Origin: a virus
Taxonomy: Duplodnaviria > Heunggongvirae > Uroviricota > Caudoviricetes
IMG/VR virus record: IMGVR_UViG_2651869749_000005
DNA: 20,059 bases
Direction: 5' to 3' (one strand)
Below are positions 2,404 to 13,587 of this stretch, piece after piece (position 1 is the first letter of the stretch; the number at the start of each line of letters is the position of its first letter). Made by a program: the position numbers and the translations under genes. The notes beneath the pieces are model-generated. The model saw only the letters and a list, made by a program, of their open reading frames with translations, did no database searches and was not told the origin of the DNA.

Positions 2404-4979
2404 CGTCCACCTCCGGAGAACAGGCCACCATCACGCATCTGTGCCTGAATTTCATCACGGGCACCCTTGCGGGCCATGTCATACACAGCCTTCAGCGCCT
2501 GTGGTCCAATCTGCCCGTTCGTGCCGTCGTTGTTAATCACCACATGGTTATTCTGCTCAAACTTCCCGGACGCCTGCGACCGGCTGTCCGCCAGACTGCC
2601 CGGTGTACCGACATAACCGCCGGTGGCATAGCCGCGCATCAGCCGGTAAAGATTCCCCACGCCAATCCGGCTGGTTGCCTCCTTCGTGAAGACAAACTCA
2701 CCACGGTGAACAATCCCCGCTGGCTCATATTTGCCGCCGGTTCCCGTAAATCCTCCGGTCGCAAAATGGAATTTCGCCGCAGCTGCCTGAATGGCTGTAC
2801 CGCCTGATGCGGATGCGCCGCCACCAACAGCCCCGCCAATGGCGCTACCGATACTCCCGACAATCCCCACCATTGCCTGCTTAAGCAGAATTTCTGTCAT
2901 CATGGACAGCACGGAACGGGTGAAGCTGCGCCAGTTCTGCTCACTGCCGGTCAGCATCGCCGCCATATTCTGCGCAATACCATCAAAGGTCTGCGTGGCA
3001 GCACTTTTAACCTGCGACATACTGTCCGTGGCACTCTCTTTCCACTCGCTCCAGCCGGACTTCAGGCCTGCCATCCAGCTCCCGCGAAGCTGGTCTTCAG
3101 CCGCCCAGGTCTTTTTCTGCTCTGACATGACGTTATTCAGCGCCAGCGGATTATCGCCATACTGTTCCTTCAGGCGCTGTTCCGTGGCTTCCCGCGCTGC
3201 CTGCCGGTCAGTCAGCCCCCGGCTTTTCGCATCAATAGCTGCCCGTTTTGCCCGTTGTTGCTGTGCGAATTTATCCGCCTGCTGCGCCAGCGCATTCAGA
3301 CGCTCCTGATACGTCACCTTGTCGCCAAGTGCCGCCAGCTGGCGTTTGTACTCCAGCGTCTCGTCTTTATGCGCCAGCAGGGATTTCTCCTGTGCGGATA
3401 GCTGACGACGTTGTGCCGCCTCCTCCAGTACCGCGAACTGACTTTCTGCCTTCCACAAATCCCGGCGCTGCTGGCTGATTTTCTCATTCGCTCCGGCATG
3501 CTTCTCCAGCGTCCGGAGTTCTGCCTGAAGCGTCAGCAGGGCAGCATGAGCACTGTCTTCCTGGCGCTCGCCTGCAGACACCTTCACGCCGGACTGTTTC
3601 GGCTTTTTCAGCGTCGCTTCATAATCCTTTTTCGCTGCCGCCATCAGCGTGTTGTAATCTGCCTGCAGGATTTTTCCGTCTTTCAGTGCCTTGTTCAGCT
3701 CTTCCTGCCGGGCGGTATATTTCTCCAGTGGCGTCAGCAGGCGCTCATACGCCTTCTGCGCCTCTCCGGTATACTTCAGCTGTGACGACTCACGCTCAGC
3801 CCTGTCCCTTGCCGCCAGTTCACCGGCTTTTTCCATATCCGACTGCAGCGTTGCCGCTGCCAGACCCAGACGGGCATTTTCCCGGTCATCCCATGCGCCC
3901 TGAAGGTTGGCCCGGAAAGAGGAGGTTTTACCGCGGCGCTGGCTCCGACTCTGGTACCACTGCCATTTTTTATCCGCCTCATCAAATGCCTTCTGCGCAC
4001 TGGCGAGCATATCCGCTGAGGATTCCGGACGACCGATATCCAGAATGGCATCCCACATCGATTTGAATGCCTTCCCTGTTTTATCCGCCCAGGTCTCCAG
4101 TGTTCCCATGTTTTCTTTCAGGCGACGGGTCTGCTCATCAAAGCCTTTCGTGGCGATATCGTTCGCCGCCTGTAAGGCTCCGGCCTCGTCTCCGGAACGC
4201 TGCAGCTGTGCAACATACGCAATCTGCTCTGCCGTCACGTTACGGAACTGGCGCGCCATCGCCATCAGCCCCGACGTCGGGTCAGTGGTCAGTTTTCCGA
4301 TAGCCTCTGCCACCTTGTCCATCTCCACACCGGATGCAGACGCAAAACGCGCGACACTCTGGTTGATGGCATCAAACTGTTCACCACCACGCACACCGGC
4401 ATTCACCAGGGCTGCCAGTGACTCTCTCGCCTGGTTAAACGTCAGCCCTGCCGCCTGCCCGGCTCTTGAGAGCGTCAGCATACGATCGGCAGTCAGTCCG
4501 GCCTGATTACCGGAAAGAACCAGGGTTTTATTAAACGCTGAAAGCGTGGAATCCCCCTGGTACCAGGCGTACGCCAGCGCACCTGTCGCCACCGCCAGCG
4601 AGGTGACCCCGACCATCGGCAGGGTGATCGCACCGGCAAGCCCCCTGAACATGGGGATCATCCCGCCGAAGGAGTCCTTCACCTGACCGCCCTGTTGCAG
4701 CAGAATAAGCCAGGGATTCTGACCACCGGCAAGCTGCGTGGCGATATCCGTAAACTGTGCGGGCAGGGTTCGCATGGCCGCTTTATACTGCCCGACGGAA
4801 ATCCCGGCTTTTTGTGCAGCCAGCGCCTGGCGGCTCAGGCCCTGTTCAACAGCACTGGCGGTTTTTCTGGCGTCGGTATCCAGACCTGAAAAATGACGCC
4901 TTACCCGGCTCATCTGCTCATCGAAACGGACAGCATCCAGACTCAGGTCAATAACAAGATCACCAACCGGCTGGGACAT
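2400..4979 (-). CDS. H: Tail tape measure protein H
   Basis: 859-aa ORF (lambda H is about 853 aa); long helical Ala/Gln/Arg-rich central region, Gly-rich C-terminus; sits between G/T and M as in lambda. Confidence 0.92.
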   Translation of the reverse strand: MSQPVGDLVIDLSLDAVRFDEQMSRVRRHFSGLDTDARKTASAVEQGLSRQALAAQKAGISVGQYKAAMRTLPAQFTDIATQLAGGQNPWLILLQQGGQVKDSFGGMIPMFRGLAGAITLPMVGVTSLAVATGALAYAWYQGDSTLSAFNKTLVLSGNQAGLTADRMLTLSRAGQAAGLTFNQARESLAALVNAGVRGGEQFDAINQSVARFASASGVEMDKVAEAIGKLTTDPTSGLMAMARQFRNVTAEQIAYVAQLQRSGDEAGALQAANDIATKGFDEQTRRLKENMGTLETWADKTGKAFKSMWDAILDIGRPESSADMLASAQKAFDEADKKWQWYQSRSQRRGKTSSFRANLQGAWDDRENARLGLAAATLQSDMEKAGELAARDRAERESSQLKYTGEAQKAYERLLTPLEKYTARQEELNKALKDGKILQADYNTLMAAAKKDYEATLKKPKQSGVKVSAGERQEDSAHAALLTLQAELRTLEKHAGANEKISQQRRDLWKAESQFAVLEEAAQRRQLSAQEKSLLAHKDETLEYKRQLAALGDKVTYQERLNALAQQADKFAQQQRAKRAAIDAKSRGLTDRQAAREATEQRLKEQYGDNPLALNNVMSEQKKTWAAEDQLRGSWMAGLKSGWSEWKESATDSMSQVKSAATQTFDGIAQNMAAMLTGSEQNWRSFTRSVLSMMTEILLKQAMVGIVGSIGSAIGGAVGGGASASGGTAIQAAAAKFHFATGGFTGTGGKYEPAGIVHRGEFVFTKEATSRIGVGNLYRLMRGYATGGYVGTPGSLADSRSQASGKFEQNNHVVINNDGTNGQIGPQALKAVYDMARKGARDEIQAQMRDGGLFSGGGR

Positions 4980-5831
4980 ATCTCACACCTCCCGGAATCC
5001 CCGCTGAAGCCATCATTAATGCGGCATCATCCACCATGATATCCGCCACATCCGCAGACAATGAAATATCGCCCCCTCCGTCCCCACCGAACCGGACGCC
5101 TCCGGCAAGTCCTGCCGCTTTCTGCATCAGCATTTTGTCCTCATCCGGCCTCTCCACCTGCTCTTCCTCACGCCGGGGGGCAAGCAGGCTGAAGTCCGAG
5201 GGATGCATATCCGGATCGCAAAAAAACAGGCTGAGTACGGCGTACGTCAGCCCGGAAAAATGCATATCCAGCTGGGTATCGTGAAAATAATGCGTGCGGT
5301 AAAAATGTCGCCAGTCGGCATATTCGGTGGATGTCATCCTGGCAAGCATGGCGCGCCAGTCAGGCCTCCCCATCTCACGCGCCAGTCTGAGGGCAAAATT
5401 CAGCTCGCCGTCGAAGACTTTCCCGCAGAAAAATCATCATCAGTAAGCGCGTTATTTTTCGCCACTTCAGTAATATCAGTATCCGGACGAACAGCTTCGA
5501 TCATCCCGGACAGGCACAACACCACGTCTTCCGCCCGGGCAATGGCATCGGCAGGCCAGGTGGTGAGCACTTCCTGCTCTATCTTCATCACGGCCTCATT
5601 CATTGACGGTGACTGCGTTTTCTGTGGATGGTTATGCCACAGGGACATCGCCACCAGAAACGCGCCGGTTCTGACAAGATCTTCCACGCTCACCTGCAGG
5701 TTACCGCTGGCTTCAGCCTGTTCTGCACGTCGTTTCAGCAGGGCAAGATGCTCGATACGCTGCAGCGCAGACAGTTCGGAAAGCGTGACGGACACACCGT
5801 TATATTCAAATTGTTCGGTTTTCAGAAACAT
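4960..5831 (-). CDS. GT: Tail assembly chaperone GT, the programmed -1 frameshift fusion of G and T
   Basis: The T reading frame (contains MGRPDWRAMLARMTSTEYADWRHFY) is in the -1 frame relative to G and is open from the slippery site to position 4960. Heptamer GGGAAAG at minus-strand 5424..5418 lies 6 codons before the G stop. Hand translation across the shift gives ...SAGK/VFDGELNFALRLAREMGRPDWRAML. Confidence 0.85.
5400..5831 (-). CDS. G: Tail assembly chaperone G
   Basis: 143-aa ORF MFLKTEQFEYNGVSVTLSELSALQRIEHLALLKRRAE... between V and H; lambda G is 140 aa. Confidence 0.9.
   Translation of the reverse strand: MFLKTEQFEYNGVSVTLSELSALQRIEHLALLKRRAEQAEASGNLQVSVEDLVRTGAFLVAMSLWHNHPQKTQSPSMNEAVMKIEQEVLTTWPADAIARAEDVVLCLSGMIEAVRPDTDITEVAKNNALTDDDFSAGKSSTAS
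5418..5424 (-). promoter_or_regulatory. Ribosomal -1 frameshift slippery heptamer G GGA AAG (G to GT)
   Basis: Plus strand 5418-5424 is ctttccc, i.e. GGGAAAG on the minus strand, in-frame as G|GGA|AAG in the G frame, just upstream of the G stop. Confidence 0.85.
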
Positions 5832-5844
5832 GTATTACCTCCGT

Positions 5845-6597
5845 TTACCCGGCAGCGCCCGCTTCAGTAACGGTGACTTCAGCTACCGTGGCAAACTGAC
5901 CATTACCGGAAATCACGGGGATACTCACTTTTCCAGCCTTAACCCCCGTCACAGTGATCACCATATCTTTCACAGCAATGGTTCCCGTTGACGGATCGGC
6001 GGAAACCGCTCTGAACGTCTTGTCGGTTGCACTTTCCGGCTCAAAAGAAACAGTCAGGGTGGTTGTTTTTCCTTTTTCCACGGTACCGGATTTCGGCGTC
6101 ACCTTAATTGCAGTGACCGGCGTAATTTTGCTGCGTTCTTCCGCCACGGAAGGTTTGCCCACGTTGGTCACTTTCACCGTGCGGGTGATCACTTCTTTCG
6201 CCGTCACGGCCTTACCGATACTGCTGACCCAGCCACGAAACACATCCACCGTGCCGTTCGGAAAACGGATTTTATAGGCCCGCACATCCCCGCTTTCAAA
6301 CCAGCCTATAAGCCCTTTCTGACCTTCCTCTCCCGGTTTCCAGGCCAGTGTAAAACTGGTATCACCTGCAGATTTCTGTCCCTGCCCGGTCGCGCTCCAG
6401 TCAGCGTCCTCATCATCCAGGTAGTTATCATCGTAGGATTCTGCCGTCATCTCGCCCGGCGTCAGATCCTTCACCTTAGCCAGTCGCTGCCAGTCAGCGT
6501 CTGACAACGGGTTTGCATAAGCATCACCCTTGCCGGTGTAAACCCACAGAGTGGTACCGGCACCTTTTACCGGCTCCAGGGGATTTGGTGTTGGCAT
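5845..6597 (-). CDS. V: Major tail tube protein V with C-terminal Ig-like domain
   Basis: 250-aa [36 protein letters not shown]...; C-terminal region rich in T/V/K beta-strand repeats ([30 protein letters not shown]) consistent with a Big_2-type domain. Confidence 0.9.
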
Positions 6598-8318: not shown

Positions 8319-9347
8319 TTATTTCACCTGTACCACCACAAACTCATCCGGGTCCGGCAGCACCATCAGCGGCGCGGACTGCGTCATGGTGAATTCACGG
8401 GCCGGATCGCCCACGGTCTGCCAGTGTTTCGGATAACGGGAAGAGGCCACCACACCTTCGGACAACGCCTGCGCATCCTGAATGGCACCGTAACAACGAA
8501 TGCCCTCTGCTGCAGTATTCCCCAGAACCAGCGAGCCCTCCGGCAGATAACGTTTTTCGGTACCGTCCTCTGCCACATAAGACGTTTTCGCCACCACAAT
8601 GGCCAGATCGCCGTAATACCCTTTGAAGGACACCACCGCCCCCAGGTCTTTCACTGCCGTTTCGAGTTGTGAATTTGAGCCGCGACGGGTATCCAGTTTT
8701 TCACGGAACAGCTTAAAGCCATTCAGCAGACGCCAGACGATACCGTCCATAATGGCAATATTCACAAGACCGCTGGCCTGGTCGCAGTAGAGGTCAATAT
8801 CATGTGTAGGATCGAACGTGTCACGATCCTGTTTTGACCACTCCTTACCACTACCCTGAGTGATGTTATTCTTCGTCGACCTGCCAAAATCAACCTCAAT
8901 TTTCTCGAACTGTTCCCCTTCCATGGTGTATTTGCCATACAGCACGGCATTCACCGCCTGCATTTCTTCCACCTGCACAATAGCGTGCTCTTCCTGTTTG
9001 AGGTTATCAGTGATGATACGCAGACGACGGTAGGCCGGGTCGTTCAGCTGAGCCGGATCTTCACCGGGAAGGCGTTCAACCGCCTGCTGGTAATTAAATT
9101 CGTGTTTCGGCTTGACGTAGCCCGGACGTAACACGCGGGTTTCACCCCCACGATGACGCAGCACTTTTCCTTCAACGACCGGGGAAACATAGGCCGCCAC
9201 CGGCGTTTTTCCGGTAATTTTGTCCAGCATCACCTCTTCGGTATGGAAATTCACCGTACGGCGGAAAAACAGTTCCAGAAACAGCGCACGAAATTTAACT
9301 TTTTGTTCGGTATAACCGAGCAACTGGCGGGTCGTAAACAATCCCAT
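8319..9347 (-). CDS. E: Major capsid protein E
   Basis: 342-aa ORF (lambda E is 341 aa) MGLFTTRQLLGYTEQKVKFRALFLELFFRR...; AAGGA Shine-Dalgarno 8 nt upstream of the ATG. Confidence 0.92.
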   Translation of the reverse strand: MGLFTTRQLLGYTEQKVKFRALFLELFFRRTVNFHTEEVMLDKITGKTPVAAYVSPVVEGKVLRHRGGETRVLRPGYVKPKHEFNYQQAVERLPGEDPAQLNDPAYRRLRIITDNLKQEEHAIVQVEEMQAVNAVLYGKYTMEGEQFEKIEVDFGRSTKNNITQGSGKEWSKQDRDTFDPTHDIDLYCDQASGLVNIAIMDGIVWRLLNGFKLFREKLDTRRGSNSQLETAVKDLGAVVSFKGYYGDLAIVVAKTSYVAEDGTEKRYLPEGSLVLGNTAAEGIRCYGAIQDAQALSEGVVASSRYPKHWQTVGDPAREFTMTQSAPLMVLPDPDEFVVVQVK

Positions 9348-9378
9348 AAATCAGTTCCTTTCATTCAGAAATAAATAT

Positions 9379-9402
9379 CCTCCGGCATAGCCGGAGGTTT
9401 TT
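9379..9402. terminator. Perfect 8-bp stem hairpin with T5 tail (CCTCCGGC-ata-GCCGGAGG-TTTTT); likely the right-end subterminal hairpin of the IS200 element
   Basis: Direct reading; lies about 30 nt upstream of the E start and about 80 nt downstream of the tnpA stop. Confidence 0.6.
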
Positions 9403-9478
9403 CAAATGCGCCTGTAAGGCTCTCTTACCAGCCGCGCCCTAACAGGCGCACACGATCTGACATTTGCATCCAACTTCC

Positions 9479-9937
9479 TTACTTACGGCCCGTAAACGGG
9501 CTGCCCGGATAGGGAATCGATAACTGCTCTCCCATTTTATCCTCTTCAAGCTGGTGCTTTATGTAATCCTGTATCTTCGCCGTGTTCTTACCCACCGTAT
9601 CGACGTAATACCCTCTGCACCAGAACTCCCTGTTCCTGTATTTGAATTTCAAATCCCCAAACTGCTCGTAAAGCATCAGACTGCTTTTCCCTTTCAGATA
9701 TCCCATAAAGCCGGATACGCTCATTTTGGGCGGGATCTCCACAAGCATATGGATATGATCTGCACAGCATTCAGCTTCCAGAATCCGTACGCTTTTCCAC
9801 TCACACAGCTTTCTCAAAATACTGCCTATTGCTCTACGCTTCTCTCTGTAGAACACCTGTCTTCGGTATTTTGGCGCAAAAACTATGTGATATTTACAGT
9901 TCCATCGGGTGTGCGCTAAGCTCTTTTCGTTCCCCAT
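9479..9937 (-). CDS. tnpA: IS200 transposase TnpA (Y1 HUH transposase)
   Basis: 152-aa protein from the internal Met (MGNEKSLAHTRWNCKYHIVFAPKYRRQ...), with HIHMLVEIPP (HUH motif) and a C-terminal Tyr region; matches IS200 TnpA of Salmonella/E. coli from memory. The ORF-track N-terminal extension to 9988 is rejected. AAGGGGG SD 5 nt upstream. Confidence 0.88.
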   Translation of the reverse strand: MGNEKSLAHTRWNCKYHIVFAPKYRRQVFYREKRRAIGSILRKLCEWKSVRILEAECCADHIHMLVEIPPKMSVSGFMGYLKGKSSLMLYEQFGDLKFKYRNREFWCRGYYVDTVGKNTAKIQDYIKHQLEEDKMGEQLSIPYPGSPFTGRK

Positions 9938-10049
9938 TGGGACCCCCTTTTGATTTCTTGTTTGACACTTGCAGTTGCCAGACCGCAAGGTGTTTTAACA
10001 AATCAAAAGGGGTTTTAATAACTGGCTCAAAGCTGAAAGCTTTCCAGAA

Positions 10050-10072
10050 CCCCCAGCCTAGCTGGGGGTTTT
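10050..10072 (+). terminator. Hairpin CCCCCAGC-cta-GCTGGGGG followed by TTTT; candidate left-end IS200 terminator hairpin
   Basis: Direct reading; IS200 is known to carry a terminator-like hairpin near the left end upstream of tnpA. Confidence 0.55.
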
Positions 10073-10086
10073 CTGTGCACAATCAG

Positions 10087-10115: not shown

Positions 10116-10463
10116 TTACGGCAGCGCCGCGTGACTCAGGGCAGTGCCAGCAAAGGCATTTGCCTTTTTGTGTTCATCCACACTGTCAGGCCAGCGGATT
10201 GCCTCCGTCGCAAAGGTCCCCGACTTGTAATACGTCAGTACCGTCTCCGTGCCTTCAAGCGGCAGTACCAGTATGCCAACCGCACTACCGGCTTTCTGTC
10301 CATCCCAGACCACCAGTTTCCCGGTGGCTTCATCCAGCATCAGGGGCGTCAGAGCCGGTGTTGCAGAAGAAATCCCGCTGCTGCCTGTGGCGGTATGAGC
10401 CGGATCATTACCAGCAAAAATACGTACTTCCGCACGCTGTTCAGTGATGGTTTTCGTCACCAT
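10116..10463 (-). CDS. D: Head decoration protein D
   Basis: 115-aa ORF with PAHTATG...LTPLMLD...KLVVWDG...AVGIL...TYYKSGTF...AFAGTA, matching lambda gpD motifs (lambda D is 110 aa). Confidence 0.9.
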   Translation of the reverse strand: MVTKTITEQRAEVRIFAGNDPAHTATGSSGISSATPALTPLMLDEATGKLVVWDGQKAGSAVGILVLPLEGTETVLTYYKSGTFATEAIRWPDSVDEHKKANAFAGTALSHAALP

Positions 10464-10499: not shown

Positions 10500-12005
10500 T
10501 CATGGCATGGCCATGAGCATTTTCACGTCCGCATCACCGTCTGCTGACGTCTGTGACACGCCACCCCGCACCGCTGCCGGTGAATGATTCGCCATGAAAT
10601 GTTCAAACAGGGCGGTTGTGGATGCAGAGACCGGTTCGGCCTTACCTGATCCCGCAGCCAGCACAGCCCGGGCGTTCTCCACGGTCATTCCCGGGCAGGC
10701 CGCCAGTTTTTCAGCCTGCGCTTCTGCCCCTTTTGCCTCATCCAGGGTCATGATCTGATCACGAAGTGAGGGCCCGGCATTCGCCTGCGGTGAGGCAGCC
10801 AGGATCGGGCGGGCTTTTTCCACCGTCATCTCCGGCATCGCCGCAAGCGTTGCCGCCAGTTGTTCACGACCTTTCGCTTCTTCACACGCCATAATGCGCT
10901 CGGCTTCACTCTGCGCGGATGCCACCGGCTGCTGTGGTGCCGCCGCGGCCAGAATCGCCCGGGCCTGTTCAACGCTCATGCCCGGTTGCCCTGCCAGCAT
11001 CGTGGCAAGCTGTTCACGTCCTTTCGCTTCCTGGCATGTCAGGATCCCCATCACTCGCTGGTTCTCCTGCGCGGCGGCTTCCGTTGCAGTTAATTGCGGC
11101 ATAGTGCCTCCTCTGACATTACTGTTCAGCGCCGTGGCCATCACACTGATGGCATCCGACGCATTGATTAATTCATCCGCCAGCCCGGCCTCAATGCCGG
11201 ACTGACCTTCAAAAACAGCGGCCTCTGTTCCCGTGACTGCATCAACAGACAGACCGGTAAACATCGCCACTTTTTCGGCAAACATCCGGCGCGCCGCATC
11301 AATCCGCTGCTGCATGTCCTGACGCACCTCTGCCGGTAAGGCTTCAAACTGATTGCCATCCACCTTATGCGCCCCGGCGTAAATCAGCGTGATATCCACT
11401 CCGGCCTGCGCCAGATGACCGGCATAGCTGACATGACTCATCATCACGCCAATGGAGCCGATACGGGATGTCTGGGTAACCAGCCGTCGGGAGCAGGCCG
11501 ACGCCAGCAGCATGGCTGCAGAACAGGCCGTGTCATTGCACAGTGCCCAGACCGGCTTCTGCTGGCGGAGGCGGTAAATCATGTCAGCACAGTCAAACGC
11601 ACCGGCGGCCTGCCCGCCCGGACTGTCAATGTCCAGCAGTACGCCCCGCACCTGGCTATCCGCCATTGCCTGCTGAAGACAGGCGACAATGCCGTCATAG
11701 CCTGTCATTCCGGAAAATGGCCGCATCCCCCCCAGCCGGTGCACCAGCGTGCCTGTCACCGGCAGTACAGCAATACCGTTCACCACCCGGTAAACACGGG
11801 CCGGTCGTTTACCTCCGGCCATGTACTCGTCCGTTTCAGCCAGCATTCCGGGAGCATCAAGCTGTACCTGCTGTTGTGGTACCGAAAGACTTGCTGCCCC
11901 CATCTCGCGCCCGAGCGCGCAAAAGAAAACCCGCGCATAGGCGGGCTCCAGAAGCAGCGGTTCATTGAATGCTGCGGCAATAATGTGTGAAAGATTACGT
12001 CTCAC
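10500..12005 (-). CDS. C: Head maturation protease C (S49/ClpP-like) with in-frame C-terminal scaffold (Nu3-like) region
   Basis: 501-aa ORF; N-terminal two-thirds matches lambda C (AFNEPLLLEPAYARVFFCAL, GIAVLPVTGTL, MTGYDGI, VWALCNDTACSAA, SIGVMM, ITLIYAGAHKVDGN). C-terminal third holds three tandem copies of a module that lambda carries once. Confidence 0.88.
   Translation of the reverse strand: MRRNLSHIIAAAFNEPLLLEPAYARVFFCALGREMGAASLSVPQQQVQLDAPGMLAETDEYMAGGKRPARVYRVVNGIAVLPVTGTLVHRLGGMRPFSGMTGYDGIVACLQQAMADSQVRGVLLDIDSPGGQAAGAFDCADMIYRLRQQKPVWALCNDTACSAAMLLASACSRRLVTQTSRIGSIGVMMSHVSYAGHLAQAGVDITLIYAGAHKVDGNQFEALPAEVRQDMQQRIDAARRMFAEKVAMFTGLSVDAVTGTEAAVFEGQSGIEAGLADELINASDAISVMATALNSNVRGGTMPQLTATEAAAQENQRVMGILTCQEAKGREQLATMLAGQPGMSVEQARAILAAAAPQQPVASAQSEAERIMACEEAKGREQLAATLAAMPEMTVEKARPILAASPQANAGPSLRDQIMTLDEAKGAEAQAEKLAACPGMTVENARAVLAAGSGKAEPVSASTTALFEHFMANHSPAAVRGGVSQTSADGDADVKMLMAMP
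10617..11051 (-). repeat. Three tandem in-frame repeats of about 46-52 codons inside C (EAKGxE...L..A..PGMTVE.AR.ILAA)
   Basis: Protein residues about 319-370, 371-417 and 418-463 are recognisably similar; the DNA is correspondingly repetitive. Confidence 0.8.
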
Positions 12006-13587
12006 GTGGTGTTGTCTCCTCTTCCGGCCTGCGACTCTCCGCTATCTGCTGCTGATACGCCTGCGCTATCCACACCGGACGTGAGAGTCCGGCTTTTTCC
12101 CGCTCTGCAGATTCCCTGACCTGCTGGCGGAAAATGTCCTGATAATCCTCGCCCATCAGCGCCAGCTCTTTCTCATACGTGCTCAGTCCGGAATCAATAC
12201 GCATCACTGATTCCTGAACCTCCTTGAGCCCGTCAATGGCCATTCTTCCGGCACCAATCCACTCAGCCCGCGACCAGGCTGAACGCGCCTGATAAAAATC
12301 AAAACGCGCCCGTGGCGGACGAATAATCCCCCGCAGAAGTGCCTCTTCCAGCCAGCAGGAAAACATCTGCGTGGCCAGCCGGGACGCTATAAATTTTCGT
12401 CGTCCCATAAAATAGCGCCACGACTCATTGGCGGAGGCACGGGCACTTGAATAACTGACCTTCGAGTAATCACGGGACAACTGTTCGTAGGAAACGCCAA
12501 GACCGGCGGCGATATACCTCAGCAGCGCCTGTTCAAGCGCCGAAAATCCATTGTCTGAATCCTGCGCAGTCTGCAGTTTCAGATCATCCCCGGGGAAAAG
12601 GTGCGGAATTTTGACACCACCCAGCGTCACGTTATTCGTGTCATACCAGCTGGAGAACTTCTCCAGAATATTAATAAGCGGATTATCCTTCTGCCCCTGC
12701 GGCGCACCGGCGATATATTCAAAGGCCTTTTCGGTATCAAGTTCACTTTCAATCGTCGCTGCATACATCGCCTTAACAATGGCTGACTGAAGCTGTGTTG
12801 CCTGCAGGGAATCGAGCATCTTCAGCCGTTCCATGACGCTGTAAAACTGGTTGGCCCCACGGGTCTGCCCGTCCTCCACCGGCTCGAAAATATGCAGCAT
12901 GGCCGGACGCCCGGTGGGAAGTTCACGCGGGATCCGTTCCCATCGTCCACTACCAGAGAACGGAAAATCATCCTCACAGATATGGTACCCAACGGCACGC
13001 CCATATCGATCGACCTCCACCCCGGCCCGCAGAAAACGGTTCCCGATACCATGTCCTGGCGTGTCCACCCGTTTCGGACTCACGGCTTTAAAACGCGTAC
13101 GAAACAGTTGCGTGCTCTCCGTATCCCAGACCGGCTGCACAAAGATTTCGCCGTTAAACGCATGAACGCCCACACCTTCACGGATAAATTCCGTAAACGT
13201 GCGTTTCCCTTCCACGTCGATCTCACCAAACATCCCTTCTGCGTATTCTGACCAGGCCGCCTCCACCTCATCGACAAAACTTTTTGCCGCGGTCTCCCGC
13301 ATCCCCAGCCAGCGCCAGTTCGGGCGGTAGCTGATAAGAAACATATGCCCGACAATGTGATCCTTATGCAGGGCCACCGCATTGGCCGCTATCCCGTTAT
13401 TGCGCACCAGATCATCTGCACGGGCATTCCCCAGACGCAACGCGGGCAGCAGGGCCGCATCGGCACTCTGCGAAGGTGGCAACCACTCTGCCATTTGCCC
13501 GCCAAATCCTGCACCGCCCCCGTTGTAGCTGAGACTCTCCCGAAGCGGAACGCCGTTCACATCAATCAGGACAGGCTTTCGTTTCAT
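11995..13587 (-). CDS. B: Portal protein B
   Basis: 530-aa ORF (lambda B is 533 aa) in the lambda position between W and C; overlaps W and C ends. Confidence 0.9.
   Translation of the reverse strand: MKRKPVLIDVNGVPLRESLSYNGGGAGFGGQMAEWLPPSQSADAALLPALRLGNARADDLVRNNGIAANAVALHKDHIVGHMFLISYRPNWRWLGMRETAAKSFVDEVEAAWSEYAEGMFGEIDVEGKRTFTEFIREGVGVHAFNGEIFVQPVWDTESTQLFRTRFKAVSPKRVDTPGHGIGNRFLRAGVEVDRYGRAVGYHICEDDFPFSGSGRWERIPRELPTGRPAMLHIFEPVEDGQTRGANQFYSVMERLKMLDSLQATQLQSAIVKAMYAATIESELDTEKAFEYIAGAPQGQKDNPLINILEKFSSWYDTNNVTLGGVKIPHLFPGDDLKLQTAQDSDNGFSALEQALLRYIAAGLGVSYEQLSRDYSKVSYSSARASANESWRYFMGRRKFIASRLATQMFSCWLEEALLRGIIRPPRARFDFYQARSAWSRAEWIGAGRMAIDGLKEVQESVMRIDSGLSTYEKELALMGEDYQDIFRQQVRESAEREKAGLSRPVWIAQAYQQQIAESRRPEEETTPRET

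Follow-up and report, generated by a model that had tools for sequence, protein, structure and literature searches.

A triplicated scaffold module in the phage 21-type gene 5/6 region of an Escherichia coli prophage, and its natural copy-number series

The tailed-phage record IMGVR_UViG_2651869749_000005 from IMG/VR, a stretch of 20,059 nucleotides referred to here as the window, carries on its minus strand a 501-amino-acid open reading frame with a GTG start (10500..12005) in which a sequence-only reading recognised a protease-scaffold gene of the lambda C/Nu3 type with three tandem, diverged copies of a module near its C terminus. The locus raises the question of whether this repetition is real, how old and how stable it is, and what a scaffolding protein would gain from carrying one module several times. 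The data indicate that the triplication is real and already on record, as the gene is the counterpart of gene 5 of phage 21 with its nested scaffold gene 6, and that the module occurs in one to four natural copies among related phages. The part that the copies play in head assembly is discussed below as a proposal.

The repeated module and the phage 21 Tri boxes

The region that had attracted attention, 10617-11051 on the minus strand, encodes residues 319-463 of the 501-amino-acid product. Units were counted with a local hidden Markov model (HMM), as tblastn with one unit merges repeated matches and is unsuited to copy counting, and the model matches three stretches of the minus strand: unit 1 at residues 313-358 (10932..11069, 78.6 bits), unit 2 at residues 364-408 (10782..10916, 84.5 bits) and unit 3 at residues 411-455 (10641..10775, 85.0 bits). 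The cores of this module of about 45 amino acids (residues 321-358, 371-408 and 418-455) recur with periods of 50 and 47 amino acids, are 58-64% identical to one another in amino acid sequence, and share about 18 invariant positions, many of which are also invariant across an alignment of 20 homologs. Pairwise local alignments between units score 94-114 with BLOSUM62, which corresponds to z = 13.7-16.5 against 1000 composition-preserving shuffles, none of which equalled the observed scores, and each of the profiles phrog_8399, phrog_8940 and phrog_17040, which were built from other phages, matches three separate stretches of the protein. Shuffle statistics, PHROG profiles and the unit HMM therefore bear out the three tandem, diverged copies, and the triplicated module of the gene 5/6 region is confirmed as real and not an artefact of composition. 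The nucleotide sequences of the units are 61-67% identical (36-39% when third codon positions are taken alone), and it is because of this divergence that Tandem Repeats Finder reported no array at the units. The units are followed by a C-terminal tail of 46 amino acids (residues 456-501; 10503..10640, minus strand) with the motifs F(E/D)xFM, SPAAV and a terminal LM(A/S)MP, which the 20-homolog alignment shows to be kept in E. coli and Salmonella and in homologs further removed.

A tblastn search with one unit matches GenBank entry M81255, 'Bacteriophage 21 head gene operon', which contains gene 5 (4572..6077, 501 amino acids) and gene 6 (5475..6077, 200 amino acids, with a ribosome-binding site at 5464..5468). 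Three repeat_region features are annotated within gene 6 of this entry, a Tri1 box (5542..5645), a Tri box (5682..5792) and a Tri3 box (5823..5936), each labelled 'function unknown; putative'. The present gene aligns with phage 21 gene 5 from end to end, ungapped and colinear, with 1458 of 1506 nucleotides (96.8%) and 486 of 501 amino acids (97%) identical, and the boxes map to 10932-11035, 10785-10895 and 10641-10754 of the window, where they coincide with the three HMM-defined units, so that units 1, 2 and 3 are the Tri1, Tri (Tri2) and Tri3 boxes. The complete phage 21 genome (OL657228) labels the pair 'capsid protease/scaffolding protein' and 'scaffolding protein' (5309..5911), and its announcement lists M81255 among the phage 21 fragments deposited earlier (Feiss et al. 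2022, PMC9119081). Identity with phage 21 extends to the portal (97.7%), decoration (shp, 95.7%) and major capsid (97.1%) proteins, which are 53-62% identical to those of lambda. On the evidence of these alignments the gene is the phage 21 gene 5/6 pair, carried by a phage 21-like (Jouyvirus-type) E. coli prophage, and the triplication has been known since the M81255 deposit, although no open-access paper discussing the Tri-box repeats was found. The sequence-only reading thus described the anatomy correctly and did not recognise it as the Tri-box arrangement of phage 21.

Internal start, copy-number variants and gene neighbourhood

The scaffolding protein would be produced from a start codon nested in frame within the larger gene. 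The ATG of phage 21 gene 6 corresponds to 11102-11100 in the window and lies 4 nucleotides from a Shine-Dalgarno sequence, GAGGAGG (11107..11113, minus strand), which matches the gene 6 ribosome-binding site annotated in M81255 and OL657228. This ATG and the preceding 25 nucleotides are identical to phage 21 (GAACAGTAATGTCAGAGGAGGCACTATG), and the arrangement of AGGAGG, 4 nucleotides and ATG recurs in the corresponding place in lambda, D2 and Gifsy-1. From this codon would be translated a Nu3-type scaffolding protein of 200 amino acids and 20.6 kDa, the homolog of gene 6 (10500..11102, minus strand). The Shine-Dalgarno sequence and ATG together (11113-11100) lie 31 nucleotides upstream of unit 1, with 11 amino acids between the start and the unit, and because the start precedes the repeats, none of the three units is missing from either the protease (gp5) or the scaffold (gp6). 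Locating the internal Nu3 start, a check proposed along with the sequence-only reading, thus places it at 11102 behind GAGGAGG and upstream of unit 1; the suggestion that it lies within the repeat region does not hold, and the accompanying expectation of an altered scaffold length does, with 200 amino acids against 131 in lambda. The further suggestion that this might alter capsid assembly is speculative.

The lambda figure depends on which start codon is assigned to nu3. The coding sequence given in the RefSeq/GenBank record (NC_001416, 5132..5737, 201 amino acids) is not preceded by any Shine-Dalgarno sequence at a workable spacing. The ATG at 5342 follows AGGAGG at a spacing of 4 nucleotides, corresponds by homology to the start annotated for gene 6 in both phage 21 and N15, and yields a Nu3 of 131 amino acids and 13.4 kDa. 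The corresponding annotation in N15, a 137-amino-acid product of an internal in-frame start, was itself 'assigned by similarity with lambda'. On this sequence evidence the start at 5342 is favoured over that at 5132, the start in the record looks outdated, and, judged against phage 21, N15, Gifsy-1 and D2, lambda Nu3 is more likely to have 131 amino acids than the 201 of the RefSeq product.

The distribution of the module was followed in three sources, comprising a scan of representative proteins, IMG/VR loci and complete E. coli genomes. A protein homology search with the 200-amino-acid scaffold gave mainly fragments at contig ends and none of full length, and served for finding variants. The 611-bp scaffold region is present in 1870 of 5426 complete E. 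coli genomes (at least 80% coverage, mostly at 95-99% identity) in up to five copies per genome, and carriers include Nissle 1917, UTI89, E2348/69 and strains of O157:H7 and O104:H4. The 80 closest IMG/VR loci were sampled, one of which is cut by a contig end; of the 79 counted, 76 have three full units and a 200-amino-acid scaffold, two have an in-frame deletion form with a 181-amino-acid scaffold, and one is truncated. A profile of the three units, run against 1.84 billion representative proteins, matched 359 of them at E <= 1e-3. Among the best 150 of these matches, 140 have a single unit, and of the 54 that are full-length (at least 380 amino acids) 53 have one, the remaining protein (P0093, 505 amino acids) having three. 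One copy is the common state and presumably also the ancestral one.

Departures from three units occur in both directions. Two alleles with two units are known from draft or metagenome contigs only, one having units 1 and 2 fused exactly and in register (P0022; ...GMSVEQAR/PILAASPQ..., the slash marking the joint) and the other lacking unit 2 (P0018). An allele of 482 amino acids (P0009, P0010) has an in-frame deletion of 19 amino acids inside unit 2, which gives the 181-amino-acid scaffold, and is annotated intact in the complete E. coli genome NZ_AP022003.1 (L090 306-1754). At the other end of the range, a 538-amino-acid form with four units and an internal product of 236 amino acids is found in 105-106 of the 5426 complete E. 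coli genomes, for example in E. coli O8:H28 (NZ_CP076704.1, L091 598-2214; also L088 1-1043). Its period is exactly 46 amino acids, its units are 72-79% identical in nucleotide sequence with exact runs of at most 21 nucleotides, and its units 2-4 are 82-92% identical among themselves in amino acids and 77-79% in nucleotides, values that point to a separate and more recent amplification in a sister lineage. The natural series accordingly runs from one unit (lambda, N15 and most relatives) through two and about 2.5 (rare deletion derivatives) to three (phage 21, Gifsy-1) and four (the 538-amino-acid lineage), and no description of this one-to-four-unit series was found in the searchable literature.

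The larger gene and its surroundings agree with this assignment. The 501-amino-acid product matches PHROG 53, head maturation protease, at E = 2.6e-228, and contains an S49 (SppA-like) peptidase domain at residues 146-293 (11127..11570, minus strand; Pfam PF01343, Peptidase_S49, E = 1.2e-34), which is situated in the N-terminal two thirds of the protein; the SppA structures 3rst and 4kwb are matched at E about 1e-15. The portal gene (11995..13587), the protease/scaffold gene, a decoration gene of the lambda-D type and HDPD family (10116..10463) and a major capsid gene of the lambda-E type (Phage_cap_E, 8319..9347) follow one another on the minus strand, an order that fits a lambda C/Nu3-type set. 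Together with the S49 domain these neighbours identify a lambda C/Nu3-type gene, in agreement with the identity first given to it.

The window also contains an insertion element in this gene cluster. A 711-bp IS200C element (9373-10083) interrupts the 57 bp that separate the decoration gene from the major capsid gene, with its insertion point 25 nucleotides upstream of the capsid ATG and upstream of the ribosome-binding site of the capsid gene. It contains the tnpA open reading frame (9479-9988, minus strand; Pfam Y1_Tnp, E = 5e-38) and a match to Rfam STnc490 (9947-10070, minus strand), and its junction is common to only 9 of the 5426 complete E. coli genomes. The element may be polar on expression of the late head and tail genes.

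Possible role of the module and competing explanations

Structure prediction gives a first indication of what the module may be. AlphaFold2 models the 200-amino-acid scaffold alone with a mean predicted local distance difference test score (pLDDT) of 61, and with the 20-sequence alignment the mean rises to 68.5 with a predicted template modelling score (pTM) of 0.27. Each unit is predicted, at pLDDT 73-82, to fold into three helices, the first of them short, with an EAKG turn between the first and second and a PGM(T/S) loop between the second and third. The linkers between units, which are flexible and rich in Pro, Ala and Ser, are modelled at pLDDT of about 50-63, and the tail is predicted with low confidence to be mostly unstructured. 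The model contains no fixed arrangement between units, and the predicted picture is one of beads on a string. Sequence and profile searches found no PDB, Pfam or NCBIfam entry covering the unit, and Foldseek against PDB and BFVD gave only matches at E > 0.1 in a whole-chain comparison that is weak since pTM is 0.27; the only high-probability Foldseek matches are to other S49 proteases of phages, in their C-terminal regions. No other part of lambda-type scaffolds is as well conserved as the module.

These features suggest a mechanism in which one reading frame would give rise to two proteins, a 501-amino-acid protease and a 200-amino-acid scaffold, with a common C-terminal region. The module would be a protein-protein interaction unit of the scaffold, possibly folding on binding, whose partner within the prohead could be the major capsid protein, other molecules of scaffold, protease or portal, or both. 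The same modules on the protease would serve to bring the protease into the prohead. Units 2 and 3 arose by ancient tandem duplication, and with three units a phage 21-type scaffold chain would be trivalent where that of lambda would be monovalent. Such a role is consistent with lambda yeast two-hybrid data, in which Nu3-E, Nu3-Nu3 and C-Nu3 interactions were found (PMC3224144). Taken as a whole, a phage 21-type gene 5/6 pair whose repeats act as interaction modules is the probable explanation of the locus.

Several observations weigh on the other side. Translation from the internal ATG in this prophage is argued from sequence comparison, and the confidence of the structure model is moderate (mean pLDDT 68.5). 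The choice of binding partner is inferred, as the unit matches no PDB, Pfam or NCBIfam entry and no fold at significant scores, and the conserved C-terminal tail could be the capsid-binding element in place of the units. The title of a 2011 report by Medina and co-workers is said to describe lambda gpNu3 as intrinsically disordered, and going by that title the predicted helices may form only on binding. Finally, with IS200C inserted ahead of the capsid gene, this particular prophage may no longer make heads.

An alternative to interaction modules is that the units are protease cleavage sites or filler of mass and volume, in which case additional copies would add sites or bulk to the scaffold and not valency. 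Lambda protease activity and the degradation of the scaffold during prohead maturation were reportedly the subject of work by Medina and co-workers in 2010. Published summaries likewise describe lambda Nu3 as a scaffold that is degraded by C before packaging (PMC3224144), which would be compatible with a need for cleavage sites. The low-confidence linkers of the model suggest a flexible scaffold of the kind that filler would form, and lineage differences in scaffold length are partly compensated by linkers (46 amino acids in lambda, 11 in the phage 21 type). The pattern of conservation argues otherwise. In comparison with Gifsy-1 the ratio of nonsynonymous to synonymous substitution rates (dN/dS) is 0.05 for unit 1, 0.12 for unit 2 and 0.26 for unit 3, values indicating that each unit is under purifying selection, and this range together with the approximately 18 invariant positions among units is a better fit to a folded interaction surface. 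Cleavage sites, moreover, are usually short motifs and have no need of a 45-amino-acid helical module, and an explanation by cleavage or bulk is considered unlikely.

A second alternative holds that the repeats are a recent and unstable tandem duplication whose copy number shifts readily by homologous recombination, in keeping with the view taken in the sequence-only reading that the repeats would be recombination-prone. Copy-number variants do occur among relatives (P0022, P0018 and the 482-amino-acid form), and the four-unit lineage of about 106 complete genomes combines more similar units with exact runs reaching 21 nucleotides. Some of the two-unit cases, however, may owe their form to assembly errors, as they lie on short contigs of metagenomes or draft genomes, and the 76 of 79 close relatives with unchanged architecture argue against ready loss or gain. 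In the present gene, moreover, no two units have an exact run in common of more than 8-11 nucleotides. About 20-30 bp are required for RecA-dependent exchange in E. coli, so that the exact runs fall short of this and the claim of proneness to recombination fails for the three-unit version, as is also evident from the 36-39% identity at third codon positions. In the rare deletion forms, the deletions resemble those produced at microhomologies.

The divergence of the units also bears on their age. Across 11 three-unit proteins, units in the same position are more similar between proteins (identities of 0.72, 0.62 and 0.59 for units 1, 2 and 3) than units in different positions (0.47-0.56), and in a tree of units all unit 1 sequences cluster with the single-copy units of lambda-like proteins, which identifies unit 1 as the ancestral copy. 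Between phage 21-like E. coli and Gifsy-like Salmonella sequences synonymous sites are saturated, with synonymous divergence (dS) above 1. As positional orthology holds across both lineages, the triplication predates the split between the E. coli phage 21-like and Salmonella Gifsy-like genes, and this orthology, with the 61-67% nucleotide identity between units, largely refutes a recent, unstable duplication as the source of the three-unit form, leaving it quite improbable.

A third alternative, that the repeats are a by-product of Ala-rich low complexity or of signals on the opposite strand, could appeal to the Ala-rich and G+C-rich composition of the region, to plus-strand open reading frames of 61-103 amino acids that overlap the repeats and to the two TTGY-N6-TTGY 'CII binding site' matches that OL657228 lists inside gene 6, but it has next to no chance of being right, as none of the composition-preserving shuffles equals the real scores (z = 14-17), profiles from unrelated phages detect the unit, 359 representative proteins match it, substitutions follow the pattern of a protein that is read in the minus-strand frame and kept by purifying selection, and the window has TTGY-N6-TTGY at chance frequency (6 matches, with 4.0 +/- 1.7 expected), so that its matches carry no weight; the composition, CII-site and antisense readings are refuted on these grounds. 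Two of the TTGY-N6-TTGY matches lie at 10850-10863 and 11084-11097 on the plus strand. No Rfam family matches the repeat region.

For annotation the significance of the locus is small. Prophages of the phage 21 type normally carry this head protease/scaffold gene, about one in three complete E. coli genomes has it, and the triplicated boxes have stood in the annotation for decades. The remaining interest lies in the natural series of one to four copies of a scaffold module, which, within otherwise very similar head-gene sets for T=7 capsids, constitutes a simple genetic handle on the scaffold. The series itself is an observation, and what follows for function is pure conjecture. A tentative and, on present evidence, rather doubtful proposal is that module copy number forms a natural valency series tuning the cross-linking of capsid subunits by the scaffold. 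Were this true, T=7 proheads might differ along the series in how fast they nucleate, how faithfully they form or how large they are, and the natural variants would be a ready-made set for studying how scaffold valency controls capsid assembly.

Comparison with lambda and other scaffolding systems

The arrangement proposed for gp5 and gp6 has functional analogues in other assembly systems. The scaffolding protein of P22 possesses a C-terminal helix-turn-helix domain that binds coat protein, and in herpesviruses (UL26/UL26.5) and phage P2 (gpO) the protease shares the C-terminal region of the scaffold and is thereby targeted into the procapsid. To our knowledge, tandem repetition of a scaffold element has not been described for the P22, P2 or herpesvirus scaffolds. 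The coat-binding domain of P22 gp8 differs in its position, as it sits at the extreme C terminus, whereas the present units are followed by the conserved 46-amino-acid tail. A likeness to P22 gp8 was not detected, with nothing below E = 0.59 in a profile search of PDB sequences and no scaffold protein listed, and no E <= 0.001, in Foldseek against PDB, a fold comparison that is weak given the only moderate confidence of the query model.

Closest to the present gene is that of phage 21, which has the same gene lengths (501 and 200 amino acids), internal start and ribosome-binding site and the three boxes in the same places. The two differ by 15 amino acid substitutions in the gp5 homolog, 12 of which fall within the C-terminal 161 residues (341-501), and in that the present copy is a prophage with IS200C between its decoration and capsid genes. 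The protease part is 99% identical to that of phage 21 gp5. D2, which also has three units and a 200-amino-acid scaffold, shows the reverse pattern, with a diverged protease part (nonsynonymous divergence, dN, of 0.108) and a nearly identical scaffold part. These opposite patterns of divergence suggest mosaic recombination near the protease/scaffold boundary. The gpC homolog of Salmonella Gifsy-1 (STM2605; NC_010392) has 498 amino acids, three units in the same order, a 197-amino-acid scaffold and the same internal Shine-Dalgarno sequence and ATG as the present gene, and differs in its diverged region of units and linkers (dN 0.245, synonymous sites saturated). Salmonella homologs in the 20-homolog alignment are 58-64% identical to the present scaffold.

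Genes 5 and 6 of N15, with a single unit and a 137-amino-acid scaffold, and lambda C/Nu3 represent the one-copy state. Lambda has the same architecture, an S49 protease with a nested in-frame scaffold between the portal and decoration genes, and its protease part is 61% identical to that of the present gene. Lambda C (NC_001416, 4418..5737) has 439 amino acids, against 501 here, and contains a single unit (residues 356-400), a count that does not rise when the domain threshold is made permissive. Both the length difference and the single lambda unit given in the sequence-only reading are thus upheld. This unit is the ortholog of unit 1, to which it is 62% identical. Attributing the extra length to three units in place of one is also correct in part, and the excess of 62 amino acids is not simply that of two more units. 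The additional two units, linkers included, contribute about 97 amino acids relative to lambda, and the net excess is smaller because the linker from the internal start to unit 1 is much shorter than that of lambda (11 against about 46 amino acids). Besides its single unit, lambda differs in this longer, Ser/Thr/Ala-rich linker before the unit and in a diverged C-terminal tail, in which a counterpart of the present tail is recognisable (LDRLM ... DLLNTPV).

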